Of a stretch of DNA of 64,000 bases, positions 9,505 through 64,000 are shown one piece after another. Made by a program: the position numbers and the translations under genes. The notes under the pieces are model-generated. The model was not told the origin of the DNA, did not search any database, and saw nothing but the letters and a program-made list of their open reading frames with translations. The stretch comes from Escherichia coli (GTDB taxonomy: Bacteria > Pseudomonadota > Gammaproteobacteria > Enterobacterales > Enterobacteriaceae). Every line of letters begins with the position of its first letter. Position 1 is the first letter of the stretch. The stretch lies in assembly GCF_965641715.1 (NCBI RefSeq), contig NZ_OZ282453.1; one strand, 5' to 3'.

Positions 9505-9565
9505 GACGCCTGCATTCGCACCGCCCCGTAGGCCGGATAAGGCGCTCACGCCGCATCCGGCAAGC
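9505..9565. repeat. REP element(s) downstream of wzc
   Basis: gtaggccggataaggcgctcacgccgcatccggca palindromic REP consensus between wzc and wcaA. Confidence 0.55.
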
Positions 9566-19910: not shown

Positions 19911-20012
<102 letters not shown>

Positions 20013-24439: not shown

Positions 24440-24711
<272 letters not shown>

Positions 24712-33036: not shown

Positions 33037-33040
33037 TAAA

Positions 33041-33592: not shown

Positions 33593-34827
33593 AAAATTCA
33601 ATATTAACAAACATTTTTTCAATGTTCAGCATACAAGGTGTTAATTACATCATTCCTTTGGTGACAATTCCATATCTTGTTAGGGTTTTAGGGTTAGAGG
33701 TTTATGGTAAATATAGTATTATTTTGTCTGTGTTACAATATTTAGTGATAATTACTGATTATGGATTTAATTTGTCTGGAAGTAGGCAGATAGCATTAAG
33801 TCTAAATGATAAGAAAAAAATTTCAAAGATATTTTGTGCGATAATAATATGTAAGGTTATTATTGCTGCAATTTCATTCTTTTCTGTTTTCTTATTTATG
33901 GAATATAATGGTTCTTATAGCGCTTATGTTGAGTTATTTATAAGCGGAATGGGAATTGTTATAGGTACATCATTTTTCCCAGTATGGTTGTTTCAAGGGT
34001 ATGAACGCATGTATTGGATTGCTATCAGTAATTTATTTGCAAAAATTACCGGAGGCATCCTGATTTTTTTACTTGTCCACAATAACAGCGATCTTAATAT
34101 TGCTATTATTATTCAGAGTTGTACTTGTCTCATTTCTGCTGGGATTGCATTAACGACAGCAAGAATAGGGAAGTTTGTTTATTTTCTATGGCCTCCACTA
34201 TCCGAAATAAAAAAACAACTTAAACTGGGTTGGAATATTTTTTTATCGACATTTTTTAGTAGTATGTACACAACAAGCATACCATTGATACTTGGAGTTA
34301 ACGCCGGAGCGGAAGCAGTAGGCGTTTATAATTCCGCAGATAAACTCAAGCAAGCTCTGCAAGGAATAATAGGTCCTGTATCTCAAGCTATTTACCCGCG
34401 CTCAAGCCGTTTATTTTCGCACTCAATTAAGGATGGACTTTCCTTTGTAACAAAAGTCTCGATTTTCTTATGTTCATTTATGTTTCTATGCAGTGCAGTA
34501 GGTTTTTTTCTATCAGAATACATCGTTAATTTAGCCTTTGGTGCAGGACATGAGTCATCTGTTTCAGTATTAAAAATTATAATTTGGATACCATCAGTTG
34601 TTGCTGTTGCGAATATGTTAGGTGTTCAAATAATCTTACCTATGGGATTAACCAAAATCTTTGGCATGACTTATGTAGTTTTGGGAGGAATAGGATTAAT
34701 AATTATGTATGCCGCTTCATATTATGAGTCTTTCATTGGGGTGTCATATGCAGCGATATTAATAGAGATTATTATTACAGTAATCTTTTTGGCAGTTATT
34801 AAGAAGCGCATTAGAGGGAAAGAATGA
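33589..34827 (+). CDS. wzx: O-antigen flippase Wzx (PST family), serotype-specific
   Basis: About 400-aa AT-rich ORF encoding a polytopic membrane protein directly after rmlC. Start is ambiguous: TTG at 33589 (overlapping the rmlC stop) or ATG at 33622. Confidence 0.75.
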   Translation: MKNSILTNIFSMFSIQGVNYIIPLVTIPYLVRVLGLEVYGKYSIILSVLQYLVIITDYGFNLSGSRQIALSLNDKKKISKIFCAIIICKVIIAAISFFSVFLFMEYNGSYSAYVELFISGMGIVIGTSFFPVWLFQGYERMYWIAISNLFAKITGGILIFLLVHNNSDLNIAIIIQSCTCLISAGIALTTARIGKFVYFLWPPLSEIKKQLKLGWNIFLSTFFSSMYTTSIPLILGVNAGAEAVGVYNSADKLKQALQGIIGPVSQAIYPRSSRLFSHSIKDGLSFVTKVSIFLCSFMFLCSAVGFFLSEYIVNLAFGAGHESSVSVLKIIIWIPSVVAVANMLGVQIILPMGLTKIFGMTYVVLGGIGLIIMYAASYYESFIGVSYAAILIEIIITVIFLAVIKKRIRGKE

Positions 34828-35741
34828 TTTATATATCTGTATGTATACCGACAAAAAATAGGCTTGACTATTTGACAAAAACAGTTGAGTCTATTATCAA
34901 TGATAACGTTGATGTTCATGCATATGAAATAGTTATTGCAGATAATTCTGACGATGATTTAACAGAAAAGTATGCAAGAGAATTAATGGATAGTGGGTAT
35001 AATATCAAATATTATAAAAATCCACAAACTGGGTTTTACAACTCTATTCAAGCACTTCAGTTAGGTGATGGTGCATTTCTTAAGTTACATAATGATTACA
35101 CCAGCTTCAATAAAGGAGGTTTTAAAAAACTATTCGATCATGTAGTAAAAAATTATGACTCTCGAAATATGCTTTTCTTCACTAATGGAGCATTGGGGGC
35201 CGTATCGACAAAATATGAATGTACTTCATTTGATAAGTTTGTATTTAATGCAAGTTATTTGATTACTTGGAGTTCGTCATTTTCTATTTGGAAGGATGAC
35301 TTTATTGAATTGGAAACAAAACCTGATGATCTCAATGAGATGTTCCCTCACACCAGCCTTATTTTACAATCAAATAATAAAATATTCTCAATAGTAGATG
35401 AATCTATTTTTAAAAATATTAGTGTATCAAGAAAAGGGGGGTATAATATATTTTATAATTTTTGTGTGTTATTTTTGGATATGCTTGATATTGAAAAAAA
35501 GAAAGGCTTGTTGTCAGAAAAAACAATAAAAAAGGTAAAAAGAGATATGTATTATAAGTTTGTAATGGTTTGGTACTATCGGACAATTCAGAACAATAAA
35601 AGAAGATATACCTTTGATAACGAAAATGCGTATGAGAATATTAAAAAAGCATATGGATTTATAGGTTTTTCTGGTGTGTTTTTAGTAGCTAAAGCCAAAT
35701 ATTTCTTTGATAAAATATTTGGCTTTTTCGTTAAAAGTTAG
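34824..35741 (+). CDS. Glycosyltransferase family 2 (O-antigen)
   Basis: 305 aa; N-terminal GT2 signature ISVCIPTKNR...IVIADNSDDD; AT-rich; sugar specificity unknown. Confidence 0.75.
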   Translation: MIYISVCIPTKNRLDYLTKTVESIINDNVDVHAYEIVIADNSDDDLTEKYARELMDSGYNIKYYKNPQTGFYNSIQALQLGDGAFLKLHNDYTSFNKGGFKKLFDHVVKNYDSRNMLFFTNGALGAVSTKYECTSFDKFVFNASYLITWSSSFSIWKDDFIELETKPDDLNEMFPHTSLILQSNNKIFSIVDESIFKNISVSRKGGYNIFYNFCVLFLDMLDIEKKKGLLSEKTIKKVKRDMYYKFVMVWYYRTIQNNKRRYTFDNENAYENIKKAYGFIGFSGVFLVAKAKYFFDKIFGFFVKS

Positions 35742-35747
35742 TATGGA

Positions 35748-37064
35748 TTGAGCATGATTATGCAGTTAAGAACAAATATTTCTGGGAGGGTGGGGCTTTG
35801 GTTGATTTTATTTACCATTTTTGGGGGAGCTTATAAGACTGCATTTGGAACTATTAGTACATCATATATATCATTTGTCTGGGGTGGCTGGATTTTAATT
35901 ATATATATATATCATTCATATTATGTAAGACTTAATTTCTTATATAGGATTAGCAGAAGTTATTATCTATATGCATTTTTTATATCTGTGTTGTTAATAG
36001 TATCTCTTATACAATTCTCATTTTTCGGTATAGGTGATATGCTGAATATTGACTTACAACTAAAAAGAGTAATGCAGGCAATAGTATCATTTACATTTTT
36101 TGCTATAACTGCTGATTATATTATTAACAAATTGACTGTTAGGGATTTATTCTTAGGAATCATATATTTTCTGTTATTTATAACGTTGTTGTGTGTTATA
36201 CAATTATCAAATGATTCATTTAGAATATGGTATTTGAATCTTACTGCAATTGATGGATACTGGTATGAGTGGGCCCAGAAAAGTAATCGAGCGATTGGAT
36301 TAAAGGCTATGTCTATTTGGGATACATCAGTATCCTATTCATTCCTGTTATTTATAGCATTTGCTGCATACTTTCAATTAAAAAATAAAAATATTCTTCT
36401 ATATTTATTTGTAGCATTGGTTTTTCTATTGATTGTTATGAGTGGCAGGACTGGATTATTATTTTTTATTGTATTTTCCTGCCTTCTATCAATCAGGTAT
36501 AAAATTTATGGATTCATGTTTACATATGCAATAACTTCGGTTATCTGCATTTTTTTTATTATGCTTGTGAGTGAAAGTGAGACTGTTTTACGTGTAATAA
36601 ATTTTGCTTTTGAATTAATTATGAATATTATAAATGGGAAAATTGAAACAAACTCAACAGATGATCTTATTAATAATCACTTATTTATACCTCATTTAGA
36701 TAACATATTTTGGGGTGATAATATTTATATTGGTGATGGTGATGAAGTAATTTCAAAAATTGGCCGTTCATCTGACTCCGCATTTGTTATTAACTATGTT
36801 TCTAATGGAGTGATTGGTTTTTTCATAACATCTATTCTGGCCATCATTAATGGGAAAATGATATTTAGTTATTTTAATATTCACAATAAAAGTGTTTTTT
36901 ATTTTTTTGTTTTGCTTGTTTGTTTTTTTCTGTCATTTGGTTTGTATATAAAGGTATTGGTATATGTTAGTGCTACTTTGTTGAAAGCAATGATATTTAC
37001 AACTATATGTTTAAATCATATTTTTAAAAATAAAATAATAGTTCGGAAAACTTATGAGAAATGA
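35748..37064 (+). CDS. wzy: O-antigen polymerase Wzy (candidate)
   Basis: 438 aa, extremely hydrophobic with 10 or more predicted TM segments, rich in I/F/L/Y, no recognisable soluble domain; position between wzx and the transferases. Family call from membrane topology only. Confidence 0.65.
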   Translation: MSMIMQLRTNISGRVGLWLILFTIFGGAYKTAFGTISTSYISFVWGGWILIIYIYHSYYVRLNFLYRISRSYYLYAFFISVLLIVSLIQFSFFGIGDMLNIDLQLKRVMQAIVSFTFFAITADYIINKLTVRDLFLGIIYFLLFITLLCVIQLSNDSFRIWYLNLTAIDGYWYEWAQKSNRAIGLKAMSIWDTSVSYSFLLFIAFAAYFQLKNKNILLYLFVALVFLLIVMSGRTGLLFFIVFSCLLSIRYKIYGFMFTYAITSVICIFFIMLVSESETVLRVINFAFELIMNIINGKIETNSTDDLINNHLFIPHLDNIFWGDNIYIGDGDEVISKIGRSSDSAFVINYVSNGVIGFFITSILAIINGKMIFSYFNIHNKSVFYFFVLLVCFFLSFGLYIKVLVYVSATLLKAMIFTTICLNHIFKNKIIVRKTYEK

Positions 37065-37614
37065 GAAATTAATTATTTTAATTTTACGTGGTGGACCATC
37101 ATTCTATCGCAGACTCAGAAGTCGAATATATGCAATGATTTTCAATACTGAAAAGTTGACAATTGGTAGAAATGTTTCTCTGTCAGGCACGAACAATATT
37201 TACTTTGGACGTAACGTATTGGTTGGAAATCAATCATGGTTGGCGGCGATAAACTCGGGGAAAATAATTATTGGAGATAATGTATCATTAAGTCAAAATG
37301 TGCATATAGCTGCTAATCAATGCGTTAGAATAGGAAATGGTTGTTTGATAGGAAGCGATGTTTTAATAACAGATCACAATCATGGTTATGGCAGAGAACT
37401 AATATATGTTCCACCTAAAGAACGTAAGTTAATTATTAAAGGAAGCACTGAAATTGGTGAAAATTGTTGGTTGGGTGATAATGTGAAAATATTAAGTGGA
37501 GTTGTTTTAGGGAGCAATGTAGTTGTTGGTGCAAATTCTGTTGTAACACGGAGTTTTCCAGCTAACTGTATTATAGGTGGTATACCAGCAAAACTAATAA
37601 AAAAAATACAATGA
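37054..37614 (+). CDS. O-acetyltransferase, hexapeptide-repeat (maltose/galactoside acetyltransferase-like) family
   Basis: 186 aa; hexapeptide repeats and HNHGYG-like motif (IGDNVSLSQNVHIAANQ...ITDHNHGYG...IGENCWLGDNVKILSGVVLGSNVVVGANSVV); overlaps the wzy 3-prime end by 11 nt. Confidence 0.75.
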   Translation: MRNEKLIILILRGGPSFYRRLRSRIYAMIFNTEKLTIGRNVSLSGTNNIYFGRNVLVGNQSWLAAINSGKIIIGDNVSLSQNVHIAANQCVRIGNGCLIGSDVLITDHNHGYGRELIYVPPKERKLIIKGSTEIGENCWLGDNVKILSGVVLGSNVVVGANSVVTRSFPANCIIGGIPAKLIKKIQ

Positions 37615-37632
37615 TATAAGGGTAGTGTTTTT

Positions 37633-38562
37633 ATGACGGTAGATATTATTATAGCAACATATAATGGCGAAAAATACATAAGGGAACAAGTGGAGTCTAT
37701 ACTCAATCAAACATATAAGAATTTTCATTTATATATACGTGATGATGGTTCTACTGATAAGACAAAAGATATTATTTATGACTTGAAATGTTTAGACGAT
37801 AGAATTATTTTGATTGAAGATGATATTATTAATAATGGTGTTGGAGAAAACTTTAAAATACTATTAAAACATTGCTCCGCTGATTATGTTTTTATTGCGG
37901 ATCAGGATGATGTATGGGAAAAAAGTAAGATAGAAGAGCTGCTCTCTTTTGCTATAAAAAATTTACCTACAAACTCGCCAGGTATTGCATATGCCCCAGG
38001 ATATGTTGTTGATGAACATTTGTATTCATCAAAGTTAAAAATGACAAATACAGACAATAAAGTTAAAAGTCTTGGTGATATGATCTTAATGAATGGCGGA
38101 GTGCAAGGATGTGCAATGGTTATTAATCGATGTCTATATCAGATGGTTCTCCGTACCAATTTTTATTGGTATATGCATGATCAAGTATTAAGTCTTTATG
38201 CTATTTGTTTTGGTTATATATTGTTTTTACCTAAACCATTATTTAGATACCGGCAGCACTCTAATAATGTATTAGGATATAATTCAGGAGGGGTGAAGTT
38301 ATGGTTCAAAAAATATATCCGCTCCAGAAGGAATACTTTTTTAATTAACAAACATACAGATAAGTTGTTTTGTGATTTTTTTTCTAGTGAGTCGTTTAGA
38401 ATGAGAAAAAATCAACATGATTTTTTCTTTTCATATATGGGCTCCAGAAAAAATAAAGTTAAGTTTTTGTATTACATTATAACCAATAAAATATTTCTAC
38501 GTGGGAAGCTAACTAACGCTATTATTAAAACGTTGTTAGTTAAAGATATTGTTGAACGATGA
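37633..38562 (+). CDS. Glycosyltransferase family 2 (O-antigen)
   Basis: 309 aa; N-terminal IIIATYNGEKYI...YIRDDGSTD GT2 signature. Confidence 0.75.
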   Translation: MTVDIIIATYNGEKYIREQVESILNQTYKNFHLYIRDDGSTDKTKDIIYDLKCLDDRIILIEDDIINNGVGENFKILLKHCSADYVFIADQDDVWEKSKIEELLSFAIKNLPTNSPGIAYAPGYVVDEHLYSSKLKMTNTDNKVKSLGDMILMNGGVQGCAMVINRCLYQMVLRTNFYWYMHDQVLSLYAICFGYILFLPKPLFRYRQHSNNVLGYNSGGVKLWFKKYIRSRRNTFLINKHTDKLFCDFFSSESFRMRKNQHDFFFSYMGSRKNKVKFLYYIITNKIFLRGKLTNAIIKTLLVKDIVER

Positions 38563-38592
38563 GTTATTTATAATAAAATGGATGGTTGAATA

Positions 38593-39699
38593 ATGAATGT
38601 TGTTTTTTCGGCAAATACATCATGGTATTTATATAATTTTAGGCAAAATACCATAAGAAGGTGTATCAAAAAAGGGCACAGTGTTTATATCATTGCCCCT
38701 GAAGATGAATACACTGAAAAACTAGTAAGTCTTGGTGTTAAGAAATATAATCTATTTTTAAATGGAAGTTCACTAAATCCATTTGTTGATATTGTTAGTG
38801 TATTCCATTTGTTTTTACTTTATTTTTTTATTAAACCTGATGTTGTCTGTAATTTTACCCCGAAGTTAAATGTTTATAGCTCTCTCGTCTCATTTTTTTA
38901 TCCAAAGATTAAAGTCATAAATAACATATCGGGTTTAGGTTCTGCTTTTGTATCGAATAATATAAAGAAAAGTATGCTTCATATATTATACAAAATAACA
39001 CAGAGAAGAGCTGATATTATTTTTTTTCAAAATAATGATGATTTGTCTTATTTTTTAGAACATCGACTGGTTCAGGAAATAAAAACAAGATGCGTTATAG
39101 GTTCGGGAGTTGATATTAACAAATTTAAAGTAACAAAAATAGACAGAGAAAAATGTATAAAGTTTATACTTGTTGCTCGTCTGATTGAGCATAAAGGAAT
39201 TCGATTGTATGTTGAGGCTGCCAGACTTATAAAAAGTAAATATCCCTTTACACATTTTGCATTGCTGGGGCCTAGCATTGATTCACATCCATCATCAATT
39301 AATTTAGATGAGGTTCATAGATGGACTGAGTTGGGGTATATTGATTATCTTGGTCATTCAGATGATGTTGCAAATGTTATTGCTGATTTCGATTGTGTTG
39401 TACTACCTTCCTATTATCGTGAAGGTGTTCCCAAATCATTACTTGAGGCAGCTGCATCGGGTAAAATAATAATTACTACAAACACAGTAGGTTGTAGAGA
39501 CTCTGTCATTGAAAATGTTACTGGGTTTCTTTGTGAACCTCGCTCGTTAGAAAGCTTAATCGGAGCCTTGGAAAGAGTATTACAACTTAATGAGAATGAG
39601 TTTATTAATATGAAAATATCAGCAAGACATCTGGCTGAAGAAAAGTTTGATGAGAATATCAACATAAAAAAATATATTGATTCTATTGAAAACAAGTAG
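38593..39699 (+). CDS. Glycosyltransferase family 4 (O-antigen)
   Basis: 368 aa; C-terminal GT4 region REGVPKSLLEAAASGKIIITTNTVGCRDSV. Confidence 0.75.
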   Translation: MNVVFSANTSWYLYNFRQNTIRRCIKKGHSVYIIAPEDEYTEKLVSLGVKKYNLFLNGSSLNPFVDIVSVFHLFLLYFFIKPDVVCNFTPKLNVYSSLVSFFYPKIKVINNISGLGSAFVSNNIKKSMLHILYKITQRRADIIFFQNNDDLSYFLEHRLVQEIKTRCVIGSGVDINKFKVTKIDREKCIKFILVARLIEHKGIRLYVEAARLIKSKYPFTHFALLGPSIDSHPSSINLDEVHRWTELGYIDYLGHSDDVANVIADFDCVVLPSYYREGVPKSLLEAAASGKIIITTNTVGCRDSVIENVTGFLCEPRSLESLIGALERVLQLNENEFINMKISARHLAEEKFDENINIKKYIDSIENK

Positions 39700-39724
39700 T
39701 ATTTAATTCGATATAGGTTTATAC

Positions 39725-40783
39725 ATGAAGATATTTCTTTGCTCTCTCTATTATGAGTCAAAAAGAGTTACAGGTGCAAATAAACGGTTTGATTATTTTG
39801 GGAAATATCTTGCTAGAAATGAAGAAGTTTCGTTGACGGTTATTGTTCGTGATGGGGAGATACCGTCATGGGCAACTGATGCTATTGTTTTACCAAAATA
39901 TCAGTACTTGCCACCTTTATTTCGCAGAATTCTATATTGGTTGCATTTGTCAAAAATATTTTTTAAATGTGACAATATAATAATTAGTGATTTTATGCCG
40001 ATTCCGTTTATTCCTTTTAAAGGTAATGATAATTATTACCAGTTAGTTCATGACATCCGCAATTTTACCGATTACAATAGAGCTTTTTTTAAAAAAATGG
40101 CAAGTGTATTTCAAGGATATCAATGGCGCAAAACACAAAATATTCTCACAGTGAGTAATTTTACTAAATGGCAATTGATTAGATATTGTAATGTTAATGA
40201 GAATAAAATAAAAGTATCCTATAATGGAATTGAGCTTATTGAAAGGAACAAACTTGTAAGAGATATTGATTTTTTATATATAGCTACATTTGAAAAAAGA
40301 AAAAATCATGATAATTTAATAAAGGCTTTTTATTATTATGTTAATGAAATAAACACCAATGCGAAATTATATCTAATTGGTAGGGATTTAGGATATAAAA
40401 AGAGTATTTTAGAGCTTGTATCGTCGCTTCAGTTATCACAATCAGTGATTTTTATTGATTCTGTTAGCGAAAATGAGTTGAGTAGAATTTATGAAAGAAC
40501 TCATTGCTTTATCAGTCCTTCTCTCTATGAAGGATTTGGTATGCCGATTATTGAAGCGATGTACCATGGTTGTAATGTGGCTTGTAGTAACATTGATGTT
40601 TTCCGTGAAATAGCTCAGAATCATGCTTCGTACTTTGAACCGGATAATATTCATAGTATTATAGATGCAATGTGCCTTGCACGAGAGTATGAAAATAACA
40701 ATCCCGAAACTCTTCATTATGTAAATGTTAATTTTTCTTGGGATTCTATAACTGCTAAATTTTTAGAGGACGTTAGATATTAA
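39725..40783 (+). CDS. Glycosyltransferase family 4 (O-antigen; possibly a mannosyltransferase)
   Basis: 352 aa; GT4 EX7E region EGFGMPIIEAMYHGCNVACSNIDVFREI; lies immediately upstream of manC-manB. Confidence 0.7.
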   Translation: MKIFLCSLYYESKRVTGANKRFDYFGKYLARNEEVSLTVIVRDGEIPSWATDAIVLPKYQYLPPLFRRILYWLHLSKIFFKCDNIIISDFMPIPFIPFKGNDNYYQLVHDIRNFTDYNRAFFKKMASVFQGYQWRKTQNILTVSNFTKWQLIRYCNVNENKIKVSYNGIELIERNKLVRDIDFLYIATFEKRKNHDNLIKAFYYYVNEINTNAKLYLIGRDLGYKKSILELVSSLQLSQSVIFIDSVSENELSRIYERTHCFISPSLYEGFGMPIIEAMYHGCNVACSNIDVFREIAQNHASYFEPDNIHSIIDAMCLAREYENNNPETLHYVNVNFSWDSITAKFLEDVRY

Positions 40784-40784
40784 C

Positions 40785-42185
40785 ATGATTCAACCTGTAA
40801 TTATTGCTGGGGGCGTTGGTTCTAGATTATGGCCGCTTTCTAGGGAACAGTACCCAAAACAATTTCTTACATTATTAAATGATAAGAGTTTACTTCAAAA
40901 TACATTATTACGACTCAAAGATCTGCATCATTTACCTCCCATAATCGTATGCAACCATGAGCATAGATTTTTAGTCGCTGAACAATTAAGGATGGAATCT
41001 ATTAATGTTGGTGGAATTATTTTAGAACCTAAAGGAAAAAATACAGCTCCAGCTGTTGCCCTTTCAGCCTTTTTTGTAAATAGATGTGAGATAAACTTAG
41101 AGAAGGATCCTGTCTTATTAGTGTTAGCTGCGGATCATGTTATTGATGATACGGATGGATTTTTAGCTGCAATAAATAGTGCTTTACCTCTTGCGCAGAA
41201 CGGTATGTTAGTGACTTTTGGTGTTGTTCCTACTCATCCTGAAACAGGATATGGATATATCCAGACTGGCAAGAAAATAATAGATAATTCATTTGAAATT
41301 ATTGATTTTAAAGAAAAGCCATCATTAGAAAAAGCGCAGGAATATTTAGATAGTAAAAACTATTTATGGAATAGTGGTATGTTTATGTTTCGTGCGTCTA
41401 CTTATTTAAATGAGTTGAAAAAATTCAGATCTGATATTTATGATGCTTGCTTTGATGCCATGAATTCCTCAAGTTTTGATTTTGATTTTGTTCATGTAAA
41501 TAAAGAAAATTTTTCATTGTGCTTATCTGAATCAATCGATTATGCTGTCATGGAGCAAACAGATAAAGGTGTTGTTGTCCCCATTGATATAGGATGGAGT
41601 GACATTGGTTCGTGGTCAGCTCTTTGGGATGTTTGTAGTAAAGATACTAATAATAATGTTATTAAAGGGGATGTCATAGATCATGATTCTCATAATTGTT
41701 TTATCATCGCTGAGACATCCTTAGTTACTACTATTGGTCTTAATAATCTTATTATTATTCAAAGCAATGATTCACTACTTATTGCTGACCGTCATTCTTC
41801 CCAAATGGTGAAGAATATAGTTGACGAACTCAAGGAAAAAGAACGTCATGAATATTATTTCCATTCGGAGGGATATCGGCCTTGGGGAAAATATAAAACA
41901 ATTGATACCGGGGAAAACTATCAAGTAAAACGAATTACTGTGAGGCCTGGAGGGAAACTATCAATGCAAATACATTATCATCGTGCTGAACATTGGGTTA
42001 TTGTCTCTGGTACAGCAAGAGTTATAGTTGATGGCAATACCAAATTGCTTAGAGAGAATGAATCTATATACATTCCTCAGGGATGTATTCATAGTTTAGA
42101 AAATCCAGGAGAAACTCCTCTCGATATAATAGAGGTTCGCTCAGGTGTTTATCTTGAAGACGATGATGTTGTGCGCTTTCAATAG
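40785..42185 (+). CDS. manC: Mannose-1-phosphate guanylyltransferase (O-antigen copy)
   Basis: 466 aa; same domain order as cpsB ([14 protein letters not shown]...cupin) but AT-rich and divergent at DNA level. Confidence 0.9.
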
Positions 42186-46653: not shown

Positions 46654-47658
46654 TCAAACTTTATAGAAGTTACGATACCATTCTACAAAGTTCTTTACCC
46701 CCTCTTTAACTGACGTTTCAGGTTTGAATCCTATTACGTCATACAGTGCTTTTGTATCAGCACTGGTTTCCAGTACATCACCGGGTTGGAGAGGCATCAT
46801 ATTTTTGTTGGCTTCAATACCCAGAGCCTCTTCTAAGGCATTGATATAGTCCATCAACTCCACAGGCGAACTATTACCAATGTTATAGACACGATATGGT
46901 GCTGAACTTGTTGCAGGAGAGCCTGTTTCAACAGCCCACTGTGGATCTTTTTCTGGAATAACATCCTGTAAGCGAATAATAGCTTCGGCAATATCATCAA
47001 TATAAGTAAAGTCACGCTTCATTTTGCCGAAGTTGTAAACATCAATGCTTTTACCTCCCAACATGGCTTTAGTGAATTTAAATAATGCCATATCCGGACG
47101 TCCCCATGGACCATAAACCGTAAAGAAACGCAGCCCTGTGGTCGGTAAGCCATACAAATGAGAATACGTATGGGCCATGAGTTCATTCGCTTTTTTAGTT
47201 GCTGCATAAAGCGAAACAGGATGATCTACAGAGTCATCTGTGGAGAAAGGCATCTTGCGGTTCATGCCATAAACAGAACTGGAGGAAGCGTAAAGTAGAT
47301 GCTGAACACTATTATGGCGACATCCTTCCAGTATGTTCAGGAATCCAATCAGGTTTGCATCTGCATATGCATTGGGATTTTCAAGGGAGTAACGTACACC
47401 GGCTTGCGCAGCGAGGTTTATTACGCGTTCGAACTGCTCGTCTGCAAACAGTGCCGCCATTTTCTCACGATCAGCCAGGTCAATTTTATAAAAACTGAAG
47501 TTGTCGTGCTTGAGTAAATCAAGTCGTGCTTGTTTGAGGTTGACATCGTAATAATCATTTAAGTTGTCAATGCCTACAACCTGATGACCAGCTGCAAGAA
47601 GCCGTTTACTTACATAGAAACCGATAAAGCCAGCAGCTCCCGTAACCAGAAATTTCAT
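46654..47658 (-). CDS. gla: UDP-glucuronate 4-epimerase (NAD-dependent SDR; Gla/WbnF/CapI-like)
   Basis: 334 aa; MKFLVTGAAGFIGFYVSKRLL...YASSSSVYG...YAATKK; closely resembles UDP-GlcA 4-epimerases from memory; minus strand, opposite to flanking ugd and wzz. Confidence 0.8.
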   Translation of the reverse strand: MKFLVTGAAGFIGFYVSKRLLAAGHQVVGIDNLNDYYDVNLKQARLDLLKHDNFSFYKIDLADREKMAALFADEQFERVINLAAQAGVRYSLENPNAYADANLIGFLNILEGCRHNSVQHLLYASSSSVYGMNRKMPFSTDDSVDHPVSLYAATKKANELMAHTYSHLYGLPTTGLRFFTVYGPWGRPDMALFKFTKAMLGGKSIDVYNFGKMKRDFTYIDDIAEAIIRLQDVIPEKDPQWAVETGSPATSSAPYRVYNIGNSSPVELMDYINALEEALGIEANKNMMPLQPGDVLETSADTKALYDVIGFKPETSVKEGVKNFVEWYRNFYKV

Positions 47659-55294: not shown

Positions 55295-56194
55295 TCACTC
55301 CATCATCTTCTCAATCGGCAGGACCAGGATTGAACTGGCACCCAGCGCTTTCAGTTTTTCCATCGTTTCCCAGAACAGGGTTTCGCTGCTGACCATGTGC
55401 ATCGCTACGCGTTGTTGATCACCCGCCAGCGGCAGAATGGTTGGGCGTTCGGCACCTGGCAGCAGGGCGATGACTTCATCCAGACGTTCGGTCGGTGCGT
55501 GCATCATGATGTATTTTGATTCGCGCGCCTGGATCACACCCTGAATACGGGTCAGCAGTTTGTCGATCAGTTGCTGTTTGGATTCTTCCATTTCGCCATC
55601 GCGTTGTATCAGGCAGGCTTTCGAGCGATAGATAACTTCGACTTCGCGCAGGCCGTTTGCTTCCAGCGTGGCACCGGTGGAAACCAGATCGCAAATCGCA
55701 TCCGCCAGTCCGGCACGCGGGGCGACTTCAACAGAACCGTTCAGTAAGCAGGATTTAAAAGAGATGCCTTTCTGGTCGAGATAACGCTTGAGCAGGTGAG
55801 GATAAGAGGTGGCGATACGTTTACCGTTTAAGGAGAGTGGGCCATCCCAGGCTTCATCAACCGGCGTTGCCAGCGAAAGACGGCAGCCGCCGAAATCCAG
55901 ACGACGCAGGGTAAAGTAGCGTGGATCTTCACCCTGGGCGCGGCGGTTAAGCAGCTCTTCTTCCAGCACGTTTTCGCCGATAATCCCAAGATCTACCACG
56001 CCGTCCATTACCAGACCGGGAATGTCGTCGTCACGCACGCGCAGAATATCAATCGGCATGTTTTCTGCCATCGCGATCAGGCGCTGGGTGTGAAGATTGA
56101 TTTTAATGCCACAGCGCGCCAGCAATTCACGTGAGTCATCACTTAAACGGCCGGATTTCTGCATAGCTATGCGTAAACGAGTGTTGTCTGTCAT
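55295..56194 (-). CDS. hisG: ATP phosphoribosyltransferase
   Basis: 299 aa from [21 protein letters not shown]; the ORF-track start at 56233 would run into the attenuator terminator. Confidence 0.95.
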
Positions 56195-56233
56195 TTTCTT
56201 ATTCCTCTTTAAACCTGTCTGAACCGTTATCAA

Positions 56234-56339
56234 TCGCGCAATAAAAAAGCCCCCGGAAGGTGATCTTCCGGGGGCTTTCTCATGCGTTCATGCACCACTG
56301 GAAGATCTGAATGTCTTCCAGCACACATCGCCTGAAAGA
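56234..56339 (-). promoter_or_regulatory. his operon attenuator including rho-independent terminator
   Basis: On the minus strand: GC-rich hairpin gcccccggaagatcaccttccgggggc followed by a T-run (plus-strand 56243-56275), located between hisL and hisG. Confidence 0.85.
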
Positions 56340-56390
56340 CTAGTCAGGATGATGGTGATGATGGTGGTGTTTAAATTGAACGCGTGTCAT
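56340..56390 (-). CDS. hisL: his operon leader peptide (MTRVQFKHHHHHHHPD)
   Basis: Reverse complement of 56340-56390 reads atgacacgcgttcaatttaaacaccaccatcatcaccatcatcctgactag: 16 codons with seven consecutive His codons. Confidence 0.95.
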   Translation of the reverse strand: MTRVQFKHHHHHHHPD

Positions 56391-56615
56391 AAAAGTCTCT
56401 GTGAATGTTTATTCAACTGATGTCTTTTAACCTAAACCACTTTCACGTTAGAAAGCAAGGGCTTTTTTATATATTTTATGGCAATGGATTTGTTTAATGA
56501 ATGAGCGGGGAAAGGTGGGGGCCTGGAGTGACTACGTTAGAAAAGTAATCGTGAAAATATGTCTTTAAAACCCTCAAGAACATTGTGTTCTGTAACTAAA
56601 GTGGGCTTTGTTCCT

Positions 56616-56711
56616 GCCGGATGCGGCGTGAATGCCTTATCTGGTCTACAAATGTTGCCTAAATTCAATATATTGATGTTTTGTAGGACTGATAAGCGGA
56701 GCGCATCAGGC
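56616..56711. repeat. Degenerate REP pair (BIME-like) upstream of the his promoter region
   Basis: gccggatgcggcgtgaatgccttatctggtctac ... gtaggactgataagcggagcgcatcaggc. Confidence 0.5.
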
Positions 56712-56815
56712 AATGGTATATTTGCTAACAGTTTCGATTTCATTCATAGAATGAATTGTCAGTTTTGATACGCTAGCGTAGCCTTATAGATCTAAGGTGT
56801 ATCAGGAGATAACGG

Positions 56816-57640
56816 ATGAAAAAGGTCGCAATTGTCGGGTTAGGGTGGTTAGGCATGCCGCTGGCGATGTCACTTTCAGCGCGAGGCTGGCAAGTCACCG
56901 GGAGTAAAACCACACAAGATGGTGTCGAAGCGGCCCGAATGAGTGGCATTGATAGCTATCTGCTTCGCATGGAGCCTGAGTTAGTTTGCGATTCTGACGA
57001 TCTGGATGCCCTGATGGATGCCGACGCGCTGGTCATTACGCTTCCGGCACGTCGTAGCGGCCCCGGCGATGAGTTCTATTTACAAGCGGTACAAGAGTTA
57101 GTAGATAGCGCGCTGGCCCATCGTATTCCCCGCATTATTTTCACCAGCTCAACATCTGTCTATGGCGACGCGCAAGGCACGGTGAAAGAAACTACCCCGC
57201 GTAATCCGGTAACCAACAGTGGACGAGTATTAGAAGAACTCGAAGACTGGCTGCACAATTTACCCGGTACTTCGGTCGATATTCTGCGTCTTGCGGGCCT
57301 GGTCGGACCGGGGCGTCATCCCGGACGCTTCTTTGCCGGAAAAACTGCGCCTGATGGTGAACATGGTGTTAATTTAGTCCATTTAGAAGATGTTATTGGC
57401 GCTATCACTCTGTTGTTACAGGCACCTAAAGGCGGACACATCTATAATATATGTGCGCCAGCTCACCCTGCGCGTAATGTTTTCTATCCGCAGATGGCCC
57501 GTTTACTGGGGCTGGAACCTCCGCAGTTCAGAAATAGTCTGGACAGCGGCAAAGGTAAGATTATTGATGGCAGTCGGATTTGTAATGAACTGGGGTTTGA
57601 ATACCAGTATCCCGATCCGCTGGTAATGCCGCTGGAGTAA
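56816..57640 (+). CDS. yeeZ: NAD(P)-binding epimerase/dehydratase-family protein
   Basis: 274 aa; MKKVAIVGLGWLGMPLA Rossmann N-terminus; synteny with the his operon and yeeY. Confidence 0.85.
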   Translation: MKKVAIVGLGWLGMPLAMSLSARGWQVTGSKTTQDGVEAARMSGIDSYLLRMEPELVCDSDDLDALMDADALVITLPARRSGPGDEFYLQAVQELVDSALAHRIPRIIFTSSTSVYGDAQGTVKETTPRNPVTNSGRVLEELEDWLHNLPGTSVDILRLAGLVGPGRHPGRFFAGKTAPDGEHGVNLVHLEDVIGAITLLLQAPKGGHIYNICAPAHPARNVFYPQMARLLGLEPPQFRNSLDSGKGKIIDGSRICNELGFEYQYPDPLVMPLE

Positions 57641-57685
57641 ACGATCACGCCAGCAGGACGCCGCATGCACTGCAAGGGGGCGTGT

Positions 57686-58615
57686 ATGAAACCACTGCTG
57701 GATGTGTTGATGATCCTCGATGCCTTAGAAAAAGAAGGCAGTTTTGCGGCGGCGTCGGCCAAACTCTACAAGACGCCGTCCGCTCTGAGTTACACCGTTC
57801 ACAAGCTGGAAAGCGACCTTAATATTCAATTGCTTGATCGTAGCGGTCACCGCGCTAAATTCACCCGTACCGGAAAAATGTTATTAGAGAAGGGGCGGGA
57901 AGTTCTGCATACCGTGCGAGAACTGGAAAAGCAGGCGATCAAACTGCATGAAGGCTGGGAAAACGAGCTGGTGATTGGCGTGGACGACACGTTTCCTTTT
58001 TCTCTGCTTGCGCCACTGATTGAAGCTTTTTATCAACATCATAGCGTGACGCGCCTGAAGTTTATCAATGGCGTACTCGGTGGTTCCTGGGATGCCCTGA
58101 CTCAGGGGCGAGCGGATATTATTGTTGGCGCGATGCATGAGCCACCATCTTCCAGTGAGTTTGGTTTCTCGCGGTTGGGCGATCTGGAACAAGTCTTTGC
58201 GGTCGCGCCTCATCATCCGTTAGCCCAGGAAGAAGAGCCGTTAAACCGTCGTATCATTAAGCGATATCGGGCGATTGTGGTGGGGGACACTGCGCAGGCA
58301 GGCGCTTCTACGGCCTCACAACTTCTCGACGAACAAGAAGCCATTACCGTTTTCGATTTTAAAACCAAGCTGGAGCTGCAAATTAGCGGCCTCGGCTGCG
58401 GCTATTTACCCCGTTATCTGGCGCAACGTTTTCTCGATAGTGGCGCGTTAATCGAGAAGAAAGTGGTCGCCCAAACTCTCTTTGAACCCGTCTGGATTGG
58501 CTGGAACGAACAGACCGCAGGGCTTGCCAGCGGCTGGTGGCGGGATGAAATTTTAGCAAATAGTGCGATCGCCGGTGTTTATGCAAAATCTGATGACGGA
58601 AAATCAGCCATTTAA
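57686..58615 (+). CDS. yeeY: LysR-family transcriptional regulator
   Basis: 309 aa from MKPLLDVLMILDALEKEGSFAAASAKLYKTPSALSYTVHKLE (LysR HTH), C-terminal substrate-binding domain. Confidence 0.85.
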   Translation: MKPLLDVLMILDALEKEGSFAAASAKLYKTPSALSYTVHKLESDLNIQLLDRSGHRAKFTRTGKMLLEKGREVLHTVRELEKQAIKLHEGWENELVIGVDDTFPFSLLAPLIEAFYQHHSVTRLKFINGVLGGSWDALTQGRADIIVGAMHEPPSSSEFGFSRLGDLEQVFAVAPHHPLAQEEEPLNRRIIKRYRAIVVGDTAQAGASTASQLLDEQEAITVFDFKTKLELQISGLGCGYLPRYLAQRFLDSGALIEKKVVAQTLFEPVWIGWNEQTAGLASGWWRDEILANSAIAGVYAKSDDGKSAI

Positions 58616-58881
58616 AGAAAAATTATTATGACAAGCCTCTCATTCTCTTGTCATTTCCCCCCCATTTAGGCACAATGCGCCGCTGTCAAAAAATGACTAA
58701 AAACCGACGTTTCATCAGCGTCGGTTATTTTTTGCTTCAAACCAATCATTCATACCAAGAGGCCGGGCTTCGTACCGGATAGATATTTACTAAAAATCGA
58801 CAGTTGTTGTCGCTGAGGAATCCAAAAAAATGGGGCAATTTTTTGCTTACGCGACGGTTATCACCGTAAAGGAGAATGACC

Positions 58882-60240
58882 ATGTCGCATAACGTTACTC
58901 CAAACACCTCTCGCGTGGAATTGCGTAAAACGCTTACGTTAGTTCCGGTTGTAATGATGGGTCTTGCCTATATGCAGCCGATGACGCTGTTTGATACTTT
59001 TGGTATCGTTTCAGGCCTCACGGATGGTCATGTGCCGACAGCCTATGCGTTCGCATTGATTGCGATCCTGTTTACGGCTCTGAGCTACGGGAAGCTGGTT
59101 CGCCGCTATCCTTCTGCTGGCTCTGCATACACTTACGCCCAGAAATCCATTAGCCCGACTGTCGGCTTTATGGTGGGTTGGTCTTCTCTGCTCGACTATC
59201 TGTTCGCGCCGATGATCAACATTCTGCTGGCGAAAATCTATTTTGAAGCTCTGGTGCCTTCCATCCCATCGTGGATGTTTGTGGTGGCGCTGGTGGCCTT
59301 TATGACCGCCTTTAACCTGCGTAGTCTGAAATCCGTAGCGAACTTCAACACTGTAATCGTCGTGTTGCAGGTAGTGCTGATCGCGGTGATTCTGGGCATG
59401 GTTGTTTATGGCGTATTTGAAGGTGAAGGCGCTGGTACGCTGGCGAGCACTCGTCCATTCTGGTCTGGCGATGCGCATGTTATCCCGATGATTACCGGGG
59501 CGACAATCCTGTGCTTCTCCTTTACCGGCTTTGACGGCATCAGCAATCTGTCGGAAGAAACCAAAGATGCAGAGCGCGTGATCCCGCGTGCGATTTTCCT
59601 GACCGCGCTGATCGGCGGCATGATCTTCATCTTTGCAACTTACTTCCTGCAGCTGTACTTCCCGGATATCTCTCGCTTTAAAGATCCGGATGCGTCACAG
59701 CCTGAAATCATGCTGTACGTTGCGGGTAAAGCGTTCCAGGTTGGCGCGCTGATCTTCTCCACCATTACCGTACTGGCGTCCGGTATGGCGGCGCATGCAG
59801 GCGTAGCGCGTCTGATGTACGTAATGGGTCGTGACGGCGTATTCCCGAAAAGCTTCTTCGGTTATGTACACCCGAAATGGCGTACTCCGGCGATGAACAT
59901 CATCCTGGTTGGCGCGATTGCCCTGCTGGCAATCAACTTCGACCTGGTAATGGCTACAGCGCTGATTAACTTTGGTGCGTTGGTGGCGTTCACCTTCGTT
60001 AACCTGTCGGTCATCTCGCAGTTCTGGATCCGTGAGAAGCGTAATAAGACGCTGAAAGATCACTTCCAGTATCTGTTCCTGCCGATGTGTGGTGCGCTGA
60101 CTGTTGGTGCGCTGTGGGTTAACCTGGAAGAAAGCTCAATGGTTCTGGGTCTGATCTGGGCTGCTATCGGTCTGATTTACCTGGCTTGCGTCACCAAGAG
60201 CTTCCGTAACCCGGTTCCGCAGTACGAAGACGTAGCATAA
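58882..60240 (+). CDS. plaP: Putrescine / amino acid-polyamine permease (APC family)
   Basis: 452 aa from [16 protein letters not shown]; 12-TM APC-type transporter; ATG at 58882 has SD aggaga at proper spacing. Confidence 0.85.
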
Positions 60241-60418
60241 TCATCTTTTCTAATAATCAACCGGAGTCGAATGAACATTGGGCTCCGGTTTTTTTATTCT
60301 TTTTTATCGAAATCCTCATTAATAACCATTTGTTCTAATTTAGAGAATTTGGTTATTGGTCTGCATTCCACCAGTCATGAATAATTTCCCCATTAACATT
60401 CATCTGGTTAATTAATTT

Positions 60419-61477
60419 ATGTTTTCAATGATATTAAGCGGGCTAATTTGTGGTGCTCTGCTGGGATTTGTCATGCAGCGTGGGCGTTTTTGCCTGACAG
60501 GTGGTTTTCGCGATATGTATATCGCGAAAAATAATCGCATGTTTTACGCCCTGCTGATTGCAATTTCGGTACAAAGCGTGGGGGTTTTTGCGTTAATTCA
60601 GGCGGGCCTACTGACTTACGAAGCCGGGGCGTTCCCGTGGCTTGGTACTGTTATAGGTGGGTATATCTTCGGGCTGGGAATTGTTCTGGCGGGTGGATGT
60701 GCCACCGGGACCTGGTATCGCGCGGGTGAGGGATTGATCGGCAGTTGGATCGCGCTTTTCACTTATATGGTGATGAGTGCGGTGATGCGTTCTCCACATG
60801 CCAGTGGTTTAAATCAAACCTTGCAGCACTACAGTACTGAACATAACTCTATTGCTGAGACTTTTAATTTGTCTGTGTGGCCGTTGGTTGCCGTTTTGCT
60901 GGTGATAACGCTCTGGGTGGTGATGAAAGAGTTGAAGAAGCCAAAACTCAAAGTCGCGACCTTACCGCCGCGCCGAACCGGGATCGCTCATATTCTATTT
61001 GAAAAACGCTGGCATCCCTTTGTCACTGCTGTACTCATCGGTTTGATTGCGCTTTTAGCCTGGCCCCTGAGTGAAGCAACCGGACGCATGTTTGGGTTAG
61101 GAATCACTTCCCCAACGGCCAATATTCTGCAATTTCTGGTCGCAGGTGACGTGAAATACATTAACTGGGGCGTTTTCCTGGTGTTAGGGATCTTCGTGGG
61201 GTCATTTATTGCAGCCAAAGCGAGCCGTGAGTTCCGCGTTCGCGCAGCTGATGCACAAACAACATTACGTAGCGGGTTAGGTGGTGTACTGATGGGCTTC
61301 GGTGCCAGTATTGCAGGTGGTTGCTCTATCGGTAATGGACTGGTTATGACTGCAATGATGACCTGGCAGGGCTGGGTTGGCCTTGTATTTATGATTCTCG
61401 GAGTCTGGACTGCGTCCTGGCTTGTGTATGTTCGACCGCAGCGTAAGGCGCGACTGGCAACTGCTGCGGCAAATTAA
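60419..61477 (+). CDS. yeeE: YeeE/YedE-family inner membrane transporter (thiosulfate uptake, TsuA-like)
   Basis: 352 aa; conserved Cys-containing motifs (QRGRFCLTGG, IAGGCSIGNG); followed by yeeD. Confidence 0.85.
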   Translation: MFSMILSGLICGALLGFVMQRGRFCLTGGFRDMYIAKNNRMFYALLIAISVQSVGVFALIQAGLLTYEAGAFPWLGTVIGGYIFGLGIVLAGGCATGTWYRAGEGLIGSWIALFTYMVMSAVMRSPHASGLNQTLQHYSTEHNSIAETFNLSVWPLVAVLLVITLWVVMKELKKPKLKVATLPPRRTGIAHILFEKRWHPFVTAVLIGLIALLAWPLSEATGRMFGLGITSPTANILQFLVAGDVKYINWGVFLVLGIFVGSFIAAKASREFRVRAADAQTTLRSGLGGVLMGFGASIAGGCSIGNGLVMTAMMTWQGWVGLVFMILGVWTASWLVYVRPQRKARLATAAAN

Positions 61478-61490
61478 GTAAGGTGTAAAG

Positions 61491-61718
61491 ATGGCGATTA
61501 AAAAGCTGGATGTGGTGACGCAGGTCTGTCCGTTTCCCCTCATAGAAGCAAAAGCAGCACTGGCAGAAATGGCCAGCGGCGATAAGTTGGTAATTGAGTT
61601 TGATTGCACCCAGGCAACTGAAGCAATCCCACAATGGGCGGCAGAAGAAGGACATGCCATCACCGATTATCAGCAGATTGGCGATGCTGCGTGGAGCATC
61701 ACCGTTCAAAAAGCCTGA
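61491..61718 (+). CDS. yeeD: TusA-like sulfurtransferase
   Basis: 75 aa; conserved CPxP motif (VTQVCPFPLIEAK). Confidence 0.85.
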   Translation: MAIKKLDVVTQVCPFPLIEAKAALAEMASGDKLVIEFDCTQATEAIPQWAAEEGHAITDYQQIGDAAWSITVQKA

Positions 61719-61760
61719 CTCAACATTGTCCTCCGCTGTACCAGCGGCGGAGGCTTCAAA

Positions 61761-63188
61761 TTAGACAATCTCTTCCGCGTACTGCCAAAGCGCTTTTAAC
61801 AGCGCCACTTTTTCTTTATCGTCGGCATACTGCTGCGCCAGCATCTGAATCTCTTCTGCATAGCCTTGTAAAAACTCGGGTGTGAATACCTGGCGGCGGT
61901 GCTCCAGCCAGCGTTGCTGCTCGGCATAATCCAGCGTCCCCGGGAAGTTGCGTGCCCGATAATTGAACAACAGCTTTTCAATCCGTTTATCAACAAAAGT
62001 GATATCCAGTGCCGGTAAATTACGCGGCTCGGTTTCCAGCACAATTTTCATTGCTGCACGATCGGCGTCACTGAAAAAGCCGTTATAAAGCTGTGCATCC
62101 ACGTTATCTGAAGGCGTAAACGGTTCGGCTTCCGCGAATATCGCCACCACTTTTTCGCGCACTTGCGGATTTTCACGCAGAATTTTCAGGTTATCGAGGC
62201 AATGCTGACGATTAATTCCCAGTCGGTCGGCATCTTCCGGGCGTAGCGTATTCGCCTGGGCCAGCACCGGACATTTATTGATATGCACCAGCTTAACCGG
62301 AACGGCGGCGTTATCGCCAAGATCGGCTTTTGCGGTATATAAACGCTCGCGCAATGTGTCGCTATCCAGTTCCAGTAATGGCGAAATGTCTCCTGCCAAA
62401 TCCACCATAATTACGGCATTGCGATTTTCAGGATGCCACGCCAGCGGTGCCACCCAGCTGGTATTGCCGCGCCATGCCCCAAACATTCCGGAAACGTGAA
62501 CCAGGGGTTTCATCTGCGGAACATCAATCAACGCCATCAGTTTGTGTTTATTGCGATGGGTAAAGAGATAATCAAACAGACGTGGCTGACGCGTTTTTAC
62601 CAGCTTTGCCATCGCAATAGTGGCGTACACATCAGCCATCGCATCGTGGGCGTTGCTATGTTCAATACCATTCGCTTTGGTTAAATGCTCAAGGCGAAAG
62701 CTCGGTAGACCGTCATCATTTTCAGGCCAGTTTATTCCTTCCGGGCGCAGGGCATAACAGGCACGCATAACATCCAGTAAATCCCAGCGCGAGTTATCAT
62801 GCTGCCAGCTCCAGGCGTAAGGATCGTAGAAATTACGATAAAAAATGTTGCGTGTGACTTCGTCGTCGAAACGCACATTGTTGTAGCCCAGAATACAGGT
62901 CTTCGGTACGGTAAAAAGCGAGTGAATACGGGCGGCAAACGCGGCTTCGTTTTCTCCTTTCGCCCGTGCTTCCTGCGGGGTAATACCGGTAATTAATACT
63001 GCTCCTGGCTGGGGTAAATAGTCATCAGCGGGCTTGCAGTAAAAGACTTCGGGTTCGCCGATGACATTGAATTCGCTATCGGTGCGAATGGCTGCGAACT
63101 GTGCAGGGCGATCTAACGCGGGGTGCGTGCCAAAGGTTTCGTAATCGTGAAACAAAAAGGTAGATTGTTGCTTACCGTCATTCATCAT
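61761..63188 (-). CDS. sbcB: Exodeoxyribonuclease I
   Basis: 475 aa from MMNDGKQQSTFLFHDYETFGTHPALDRPAQFAAIRTD (DEDDh exonuclease motif); the ORF-track N-terminal extension is rejected. Confidence 0.95.
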   Translation of the reverse strand: MMNDGKQQSTFLFHDYETFGTHPALDRPAQFAAIRTDSEFNVIGEPEVFYCKPADDYLPQPGAVLITGITPQEARAKGENEAAFAARIHSLFTVPKTCILGYNNVRFDDEVTRNIFYRNFYDPYAWSWQHDNSRWDLLDVMRACYALRPEGINWPENDDGLPSFRLEHLTKANGIEHSNAHDAMADVYATIAMAKLVKTRQPRLFDYLFTHRNKHKLMALIDVPQMKPLVHVSGMFGAWRGNTSWVAPLAWHPENRNAVIMVDLAGDISPLLELDSDTLRERLYTAKADLGDNAAVPVKLVHINKCPVLAQANTLRPEDADRLGINRQHCLDNLKILRENPQVREKVVAIFAEAEPFTPSDNVDAQLYNGFFSDADRAAMKIVLETEPRNLPALDITFVDKRIEKLLFNYRARNFPGTLDYAEQQRWLEHRRQVFTPEFLQGYAEEIQMLAQQYADDKEKVALLKALWQYAEEIV

Positions 63189-63396
63189 TAGGTTAAATCC
63201 GTTATTTCTGCTGTCTGCCAGAGTATCAAATATCACCGTGCTAATCAGCTTTAGCGCGATAATTTGACAGCGAGTGGCAACAGATCATGTCAGATAAAAA
63301 TGAGAGGGTAGTCACATTTTCTTGCACTTTATTCCAGCCAGTTCATAAGTATTTCCGTAAAAAGAACAGCTATTTGAAACTCCTGAGGGTTTGCTG

Positions 63397-64000
63397 TTGA
63401 AACGCCGTCTTATTATTGCTGCTTCTTTGTTCGTTTTTAACTTATCGTCTGGTTTTGCGGCGGAAAACATTCCTTTTTCACCTCAGCCTCCAGAGATTCA
63501 TGCCGGGTCCTGGGTACTGATGGATTACACCACCGGACAGATCCTCACCGCGGGTAATGAGCATCAACAGCGCAATCCCGCCAGCCTGACAAAGCTGATG
63601 ACGGGTTATGTCGTGGATCGCGCTATCGATAGTCATCGCATTACGCCAGACGATATTGTCACCGTGGGGCGCGATGCGTGGGCGAAAGATAATCCGGTGT
63701 TTGTCGGTTCTTCACTGATGTTTTTGAAAGAGGGCGATCGCGTATCGGTACGTGATTTAAGCCGTGGTTTAATTGTTGATTCCGGAAATGACGCTTGTGT
63801 TGCTCTGGCTGACTATATTGCCGGTGGGCAACGGCAGTTTGTTGAAATGATGAACAACTATGCCGAGAAGCTGCATCTCAAGGATACGCATTTTGAAACA
63901 GTGCATGGCCTGGATGCGCCAGGTCAGCATAGCTCGGCTTATGATTTAGCTGTGCTTTCTCGTGCTATCATCCACGGCGAGCCCGAGTTTTATCATATGT
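63397..64000 (+). CDS. dacD: D-alanyl-D-alanine carboxypeptidase (PBP6b), N-terminal part; 3-prime end outside the window
   Basis: TTG-initiated frame reading MKRRLIIAASLFVFNLSSGFAAENIPFSPQPPEIH... with active-site SLTKLM; not in the ORF track because it lacks a stop inside the window. Confidence 0.85.
   Translation, partial: MKRRLIIAASLFVFNLSSGFAAENIPFSPQPPEIHAGSWVLMDYTTGQILTAGNEHQQRNPASLTKLMTGYVVDRAIDSHRITPDDIVTVGRDAWAKDNPVFVGSSLMFLKEGDRVSVRDLSRGLIVDSGNDACVALADYIAGGQRQFVEMMNNYAEKLHLKDTHFETVHGLDAPGQHSSAYDLAVLSRAIIHGEPEFYHM

Follow-up and report, generated by a model that had tools for sequence, protein, structure and literature searches.

Toxin-antitoxin (TA) modules are accessory genes in Escherichia coli, and no type II TA system is conserved among the strains MG1655, W, EDL933 and UTI89 (Fraikin et al., PMC7167474). 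Their uneven distribution and horizontal transfer are credited in PMC7167474 to Fiedoruk 2015 and Ramisetty & Santhosh 2016. The TA systems of E. coli sit in intergenic regions between core genes, the smallest unit transferred comprising a promoter/operator and the ORFs without a terminator, and the arrangement hisL-282 bp-yefM yoeB-82 bp-yeeZ is listed as "likely cotranscribed" (Ramisetty et al., PMC5120126). The yefM-yoeB pair occupies a conserved context in K-12 and HS (phylogroup A) and in CFT073 and NRG857c (B2) (PMC7232551). A second described system that bears on the present locus is BIME-1, a single-copy pair of z1 and y REP sequences with a long, well-conserved L linker and frequently an IHF site (Ton-Hoang et al., PMC3333891).

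Within the window (the whole stretch of E. coli DNA that we analyzed, 64,000 nucleotides in length) hisL ends at position 56390 and yeeZ begins at 56816, leaving a gap of 425 bp (56391-56815, GC 0.38), as a preliminary description of the sequence had given it. The leader peptide gene hisL (MTRVQFKHHHHHHHPD) lies on the minus strand at 56340-56390, and was identified from its sequence and translation together with the hisL annotation in matching genomes. The his operon leader/attenuator RNA (56241-56364, minus strand) scores 131.6 bits against Rfam RF00514 (E=2e-23), above the gathering score of 49, and so belongs to that family; it adjoins the variable segment described below without being part of it, and is the same in both alleles. 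On the right flank, yeeZ (56816-57640, plus strand) encodes an SDR-family oxidoreductase/epimerase, an assignment made from the ORF and from the yeeZ annotation in matching genomes.

The spacer directly upstream of hisL (56392-56471, minus strand) can be aligned from Escherichia to Salmonella, Citrobacter, Lelliottia and Enterobacter. We take it to be the core his promoter, presumably with a -35-like TTGCTT (the reverse complement of AAGCAA at 56453-56458) and a -10-like TAGGTT (the reverse complement of AACCTA at 56429-56434); a consensus promoter scan made no call for this putative promoter in 56392-56471. Toward the other end of the interval there is a perfect dyad, TTCATTC-ATA-GAATGAA (TTCATTCATAGAATGAA, 56739-56755), recognized in the sequence and by its conservation in alignments. 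It forms an arm of the inverted repeat I2 and is located ~60 bp before the start of yeeZ; Salmonella and Citrobacter share it in part with Escherichia. The dyad is a candidate operator for yeeZ, for which the regulator could possibly be the adjacent LysR-type YeeY. The ORFs of the interval, of 20-69 aa, are spurious, and those of 68-69 aa run across the REP sequences. Elsewhere in the window, a low-GC (0.29-0.38) O-antigen cluster occupies 33000-42000 between rfb-like genes and gnd, and an extra ORF of 334 aa that K-12 does not have lies on the minus strand at 46654-47658, between ugd-like and wzz-like ORFs.

The interval contains no yefM-yoeB. The K-12 YefM and YoeB proteins gave nothing significant by TBLASTN against all 64 kb and zero matches inside 56391-56815; the best YoeB match was a 15-aa fragment (E=0.013) near 22.0 kb, and the best E-value for YefM was 1.1. 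Within the interval we find neither an ORF for a Phd/YefM-family antitoxin nor an overlapping downstream ORF for a YoeB/Txe toxin of the RelE fold. The autoregulated promoter with TGTACA palindromes upstream of yefM is missing from it as well, this operator hexamer occurring twice in the K-12 interval and nowhere in that of the window. The preliminary description had seen no YefM/YoeB ORF here and had proposed the TBLASTN comparison, and its reading is borne out by that search, by the ORFs and by the operator hexamer. It had also placed yefM-yoeB at this position on the K-12 map, and correctly so: MG1655 carries yoeB and yefM (yefM-yoeB, b2017/b4539) between yeeZ and hisL, in an interval of 867 bp.

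Alignment of the interval with K-12, likewise proposed at that stage, reveals sharp junctions enclosing alternative segments. Positions 56100-56522 and 56739-57044 are ~99% identical to K-12 by blastn and junction alignments, and between them a 216-bp allele-specific segment (56523-56738, GC 0.40) stands in place of a 658-bp cassette in K-12 (NC_000913 2089206-2089863). The cassette comprises 150 bp of promoter/operator, yefM and yoeB, and ends 5 bp past the yoeB stop. Junction mapping reproduces the K-12 anatomy given in PMC5120126, and we found no terminator-like site when we looked for one on the yoeB-yeeZ strand of K-12. At the left junction GCTAAGAG is read in K-12, E. albertii and Escherichia sp. 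MOD1-EC7003, and GCCTGGAG in the window. Because E. albertii and MOD1-EC7003 read GCTAAGAG like K-12, the left breakpoint is shifted ~8 bp to the right, which gives a replaced stretch of ~56531-56735.

The 216-bp segment shows no detectable homology with the K-12 cassette: local alignment of the two gives a score of 20, the average for shuffled sequences is 20.0, and 157 of 300 shuffles equal or exceed the observed score. The polymorphism is a replacement, 216 bp by 658 bp, and not a pure insertion or deletion. The site had been described as one of strain-variable presence or absence; it does vary among strains, both alleles being found among 5426 genomes, and what varies is which of two segments is present rather than whether the module is simply there. 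We also considered the REP allele as a decayed form of the cassette, an idea prompted by short common strings such as TTGTGTTCTG and by the genome HH97 discussed below, and rejected it on the shuffle-level alignment.

The degenerate REP pair that the preliminary description had noticed at 56616-56711 is real, and matches the y and z1 consensus sequences. Its left arm is a y-type REP (an iREP ending CTAC; 56616-56649, plus strand) with 3 mismatches to the y consensus, which gave 0 matches in 100 shuffles. Four other copies in the window fit the y consensus with 0-2 mismatches. These four lie in the colanic-acid region, at 9528-9561, 19932-19965, 24528-24561 and 24624-24657; the last two point the same way at a distance of 96 bp, and are flanked by one ORF that ends at 24402 and another that starts at 24774. 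The right arm is a z1-type REP (56683-56711, minus strand) with 2 mismatches to the z1 consensus and a GTAG start on the plus strand, and the inverted-repeat arms I1 and I3 pair it with the left REP. The feet of the two REPs are CTAC at 56646-56649 and GTAG at 56683-56686. Between them lies a 33-nt long 'L' linker (56650-56682), with a match to the IHF core, ATCAATATATTG, on the minus strand at 56666-56677 (pattern ATCAANNNNTTR). The core of the linker, AATTCAAT.TATTG, is common to the window element and to one between the convergent genes cmoB and torZ, and the entire unit aligns to this paralogous element, linker core included. Folded as single-stranded DNA, the unit has an energy of -17.5 kcal/mol (z = -2.9).

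The REP labels rest on the consensus matches and on the paralogous BIME. There is one y REP and one inverted z1 REP with GTAG/CTAC feet, joined by an L linker, in a single copy with no tandem array. As judged from its sequence, the REP pair in the window is a bona fide BIME-1, made up of a y REP, a 33-nt linker with a predicted IHF core and an inverted z1 REP. We may speculate that it has a role at the locus, for example in binding IHF or as a barrier to supercoiling. Outside its REPs the segment has an 88-bp part that 1198 genomes contain in a single copy and that the remaining genomes lack, and the segment as a whole is rejected as a dispersed mobile element on the strength of this strict single-copy state. 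An Rfam scan of the variable segment returned only sub-threshold REP-related matches (naRNA4 and ES036), which support no sRNA.

The distribution of the two alleles was examined in 5426 complete E. coli genomes, in 5423 of which the flanks were found. The arrangement of the window is matched contiguously in 1193 of the 5426, with an identity of 98.2-99.6% among the matches listed. The 216-bp segment is present in 1196 (~22%), 97-99.5% identical to the window, and the 658-bp cassette in 4212 (~78%) at a coverage of at least 80% and an identity of 95.4-100%. Together these make 5408, leaving ~18 genomes with neither, and the REP and cassette alleles are essentially mutually exclusive. A K-12-like yefM-yoeB elsewhere in genomes with the REP allele must therefore be rare, if it occurs at all. 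The REP-allele genomes include many O157:H7 strains. Over the 8 kb of window positions 56000-64000 the identity to every complete E. coli genome in the collection is at most 99.2%.

Two genomes are exceptional at this locus. E. coli HH97 (L003, NZ_CP116409.1; 2325-2973) has a hisL-yeeZ interval of 649 bp, near the mean of 425 and 867 bp, in which motifs of the REP allele are mixed with fragments of the yefM operator and coding sequence, out of order and with no annotated gene; this is seen in one of the 5426 genomes. We have rejected HH97 as an evolutionary intermediate, since a singleton of scrambled motif order and middling length is probably a consensus artifact of mixed reads. E. coli MEI4BO-21 (L002, NZ_CM149565.1; 2728-5305) has upstream of hisL a yeeZ-like SDR gene, no yeeY, and plaP, and over 2578 bp the region has an identity of 96.2% to Kluyvera georgiana (L038) and of only ~85% to Escherichia. 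This suggests either an intergeneric import beside the O-antigen/his region or an assembly that is mislabelled or chimeric. Seven genomes share with MEI4BO-21 a band of 80-90% identity at hisL-yeeZ.

A scan of species-representative genomes with an exact hisL pattern yielded 43 loci (those of E. fergusonii and of the E. coli species representative were not recovered), for which gap sizes and the presence of YefM/YoeB were determined by TBLASTN, alongside a multiple alignment. In some 35 enterobacterial loci outside Escherichia (Salmonella, Citrobacter, Enterobacter, Lelliottia, Kluyvera, Leclercia, Silvania, Kosakonia, Raoultella and others) the hisL-yeeZ gap is 160-178 bp and holds no YefM/YoeB. 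YefM/YoeB are equally absent from E. albertii, E. coli E69, Escherichia sp. MOD1-EC7003 and Escherichia sp. E1V33, where the gap is 424-426 bp. These four carry the segment with its BIME-1, at identities to the window of 88.9%, 98.1%, 93.5% and 97.2%, respectively. Gap sizes and multiple alignment together delimit an Escherichia-specific block of ~265 bp (56472-56738) that is absent from other Enterobacteriaceae. The left ~50 bp of the block (56472-56522) are kept in both E. coli alleles, and its right edge coincides with the right junction of the cassette, both being directly 5' of the dyad at 56739-56755.

Since four other Escherichia lineages share the REP allele and other genera have a bare spacer, we infer that the REP allele is probably the ancestral Escherichia state and that the cassette would be derived and specific to E. 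coli. That the window 'lacks' yefM-yoeB is accordingly not to be taken to mean that the genes were 'lost', given that the same allele is carried by four other Escherichia lineages, E. albertii among them. In principle, the REP allele could have been transferred between species by recombination around the nearby O-antigen hotspot.

The most divergent cassette, in the UTI strain M45, shows 95.4% identity and has the same junctions as in K-12, with no gaps. Between M45 and K-12, yefM is 98.4% and yoeB 96.9% identical and the flanks a similar 97.5% and 98.9%, and the 150 bp upstream of yefM (K-12, L001 4715-4864; M45, L047 1501-1650) are only 88.7% identical. Such a pattern fits one old insertion, followed by divergence or by spread via the flanks. 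The hairpin CTAAGAGGAC-TGT-CCTCTTAG at the left junction of K-12 is degenerate in M45. Relatives of yefM-yoeB on plasmids of Salmonella, Citrobacter and E. marmotae are 82-86% identical in nucleotide sequence and span the promoter/operator and both genes (cassette positions 87-654), which supports a probable horizontal origin of the cassette. Three PLSDB records with a K-12-type cassette, NZ_OL790696.1, CP061244.1 and CP088875.1, are 4.8 Mb, 1.4 Mb and 0.39 Mb in length and look like chromosome filed as plasmid.

Given the anatomy, junctions, allele frequencies and outgroup states that we observe, it is very probable that the window carries the ancestral Escherichia spacer allele and that K-12-type strains gained the cassette by replacement. 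The likely order of events begins with an Escherichia ancestor, which would have gained the ~265-bp block with its single BIME-1 between the divergent his and yeeZ promoters. In E. coli a minimal, horizontally acquired cassette without a terminator would afterwards have replaced ~205-216 bp of the block, including the BIME-1, to generate the K-12-type allele now found in ~78% of genomes. The lineage of the window, like O157:H7 and ~22% of E. coli, would either never have received the cassette or have regained the old allele by homologous recombination via the conserved flanks. The window strain has no YoeB/YefM at the site, and in their place a REP pair with a predicted IHF site between divergent promoters.

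The latter of these two routes can be taken further: the cassette would have reached fixation early in E. coli, and the ~22% of strains with the REP allele, possibly including that of the window, would have re-imported this allele via the his/yeeZ flanks by homologous recombination with REP-allele Escherichia. The cassette allele is found in phylogroup A as well as in B2, and therefore retention and re-acquisition of the ancestral allele are inseparable for any given E. coli lineage. The locus moreover adjoins the O-antigen/his recombination hotspot, and imports of the whole region occur here, as in MEI4BO-21 with its Kluyvera-like his-yeeZ-plaP region at 96.2% identity. The flanks of the window (98.6% and 99.0% identical to K-12) are no more divergent than those of M45. 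Against these points, the 97-99.5% identity of REP-allele segments to the window is in the typical within-species range and is no sign of recent import from a distant species. We regard a general reversion of this kind as unlikely, with a chance of being correct that is nevertheless appreciable.

A history of secondary loss, in which yefM-yoeB was once present in the window lineage and was deleted, with the REP pair arriving afterwards, fares far worse. It would be in keeping with the majority status of the cassette allele (78%) and with the decay and loss of TA modules in E. coli, for which PMC7167474 cites the study of ccdO157 decay. It is contradicted by the outgroups, because a REP pair newly inserted after a deletion could not restore the segment they share: the 216 bp, unique 88-bp part included, occur in E. 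albertii and three further Escherichia lineages at 89-98% identity. Nor does the window retain any residual homology to the cassette, and we consider such a loss highly improbable. That the short interval results from a collapse or error in assembly, of which the apparently artifactual chimeric interval of HH97 might serve as a precedent, is scarcely credible when 1193 independent complete genomes match it end to end, as do four other Escherichia.

In Kosakonia oryziphila (L028) the first 450 bp upstream of hisL contain an unrelated insert of ~270 bp at the same spot between the his and yeeZ promoters. It has an ERIC-like core, with 6 mismatches in 44 to the ERIC1R/ERIC2 core, and the sister species K. 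pseudosacchari (L040) has a bare gap of 175 bp. The Kosakonia insert suggests that the his-yeeZ spot tolerates small insertions. Three unrelated inserts, namely the Escherichia BIME-1 block, the E. coli yefM-yoeB cassette and the Kosakonia ERIC-like element, end just 5' of the dyad TTCATTCATAGAATGAA. One could imagine that the spot captures inserts recurrently, up to a fixed right boundary 5' of the dyad, with the BIME-1 perhaps the entry point of the cassette and with the polymorphism being an old one maintained across phylogroups rather than a product of neutral drift; we give this combined proposal only a small chance. As an entry point for a TA module, the BIME-1 may have acted through REP-directed cleavage or recombination, or through IHF bending.

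The replacement could have consequences for the two flanking transcription units. Every allele, and other genera too, retain the core his promoter region, and the difference between the alleles is unlikely to affect it. In the window strain yeeZ would have to use its own promoter within the conserved ~77 bp, and would receive no transcripts reading through from the yefM promoter. A consensus scan identified a promoter-like site facing yeeZ, CTAACA-16-TAGAAT (56725-56752, plus strand, 9 of 12 matches), that spans the right junction, such that its -35 is allele-specific and its -10 lies in the common sequence. The three promoter-like sites found by the scan are inside the shuffle range and are no evidence of function. 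For annotation, yefM-yoeB is not to be expected in the window strain, and the TA complement of K-12 is no template for the species. What the analysis adds is modest, and consists in the direction of change, from an ancestral REP/BIME-1 allele to a TA cassette. The locus provides a cleanly bounded natural example of a minimal TA cassette landing between core promoters, and the ~22/78 split over 5426 genomes might be used as a natural isogenic comparison in studying the regulation of yeeZ or his.

Among the closest described systems is the K-12 yefM-yoeB locus. The site is the same, and both the hisL/his promoter side and the yeeZ-proximal 77 bp with the dyad are also present in the window; the difference is that the window is without both genes, the TGTACA hexamers and the 150-bp region upstream of yefM, and has 216 bp with a BIME-1 instead. 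Within those 216 bp the resemblance is to BIME-1 (RIP/RIB) elements such as that at cmoB-torZ, with a y REP, an IHF-type linker and an inverted z1 REP, CTAC/GTAG ends and a single copy at the locus. It departs from them in that both window REPs are slightly degenerate (3 and 2 mismatches), and in that the cmoB-torZ BIME lies downstream of convergent genes, whereas the window BIME-1 lies between the divergent hisL and yeeZ. The ERIC/IRU insertion polymorphisms offer a parallel of position, since the ERIC-like insert of Kosakonia sits where the Escherichia block does, yet the window element is a REP/BIME-1, and even where it fits the ERIC core best it differs at 24 of 44 positions.

The replacing segment, finally, behaves like other horizontally acquired chromosomal TA cassettes, which are strain-variable, occupy a fixed intergenic site, have no terminator and probably leave the downstream gene co-transcribed (PMC5120126, PMC7167474). 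From known cassette sites such as that of ccdO157 at folA-apaH (Mine et al. 2009) the present site differs in nothing essential, the window representing the unoccupied state. The variation at this locus is of an ordinary and already-understood kind, TA modules as horizontally acquired intergenic cassettes being documented in E. coli.
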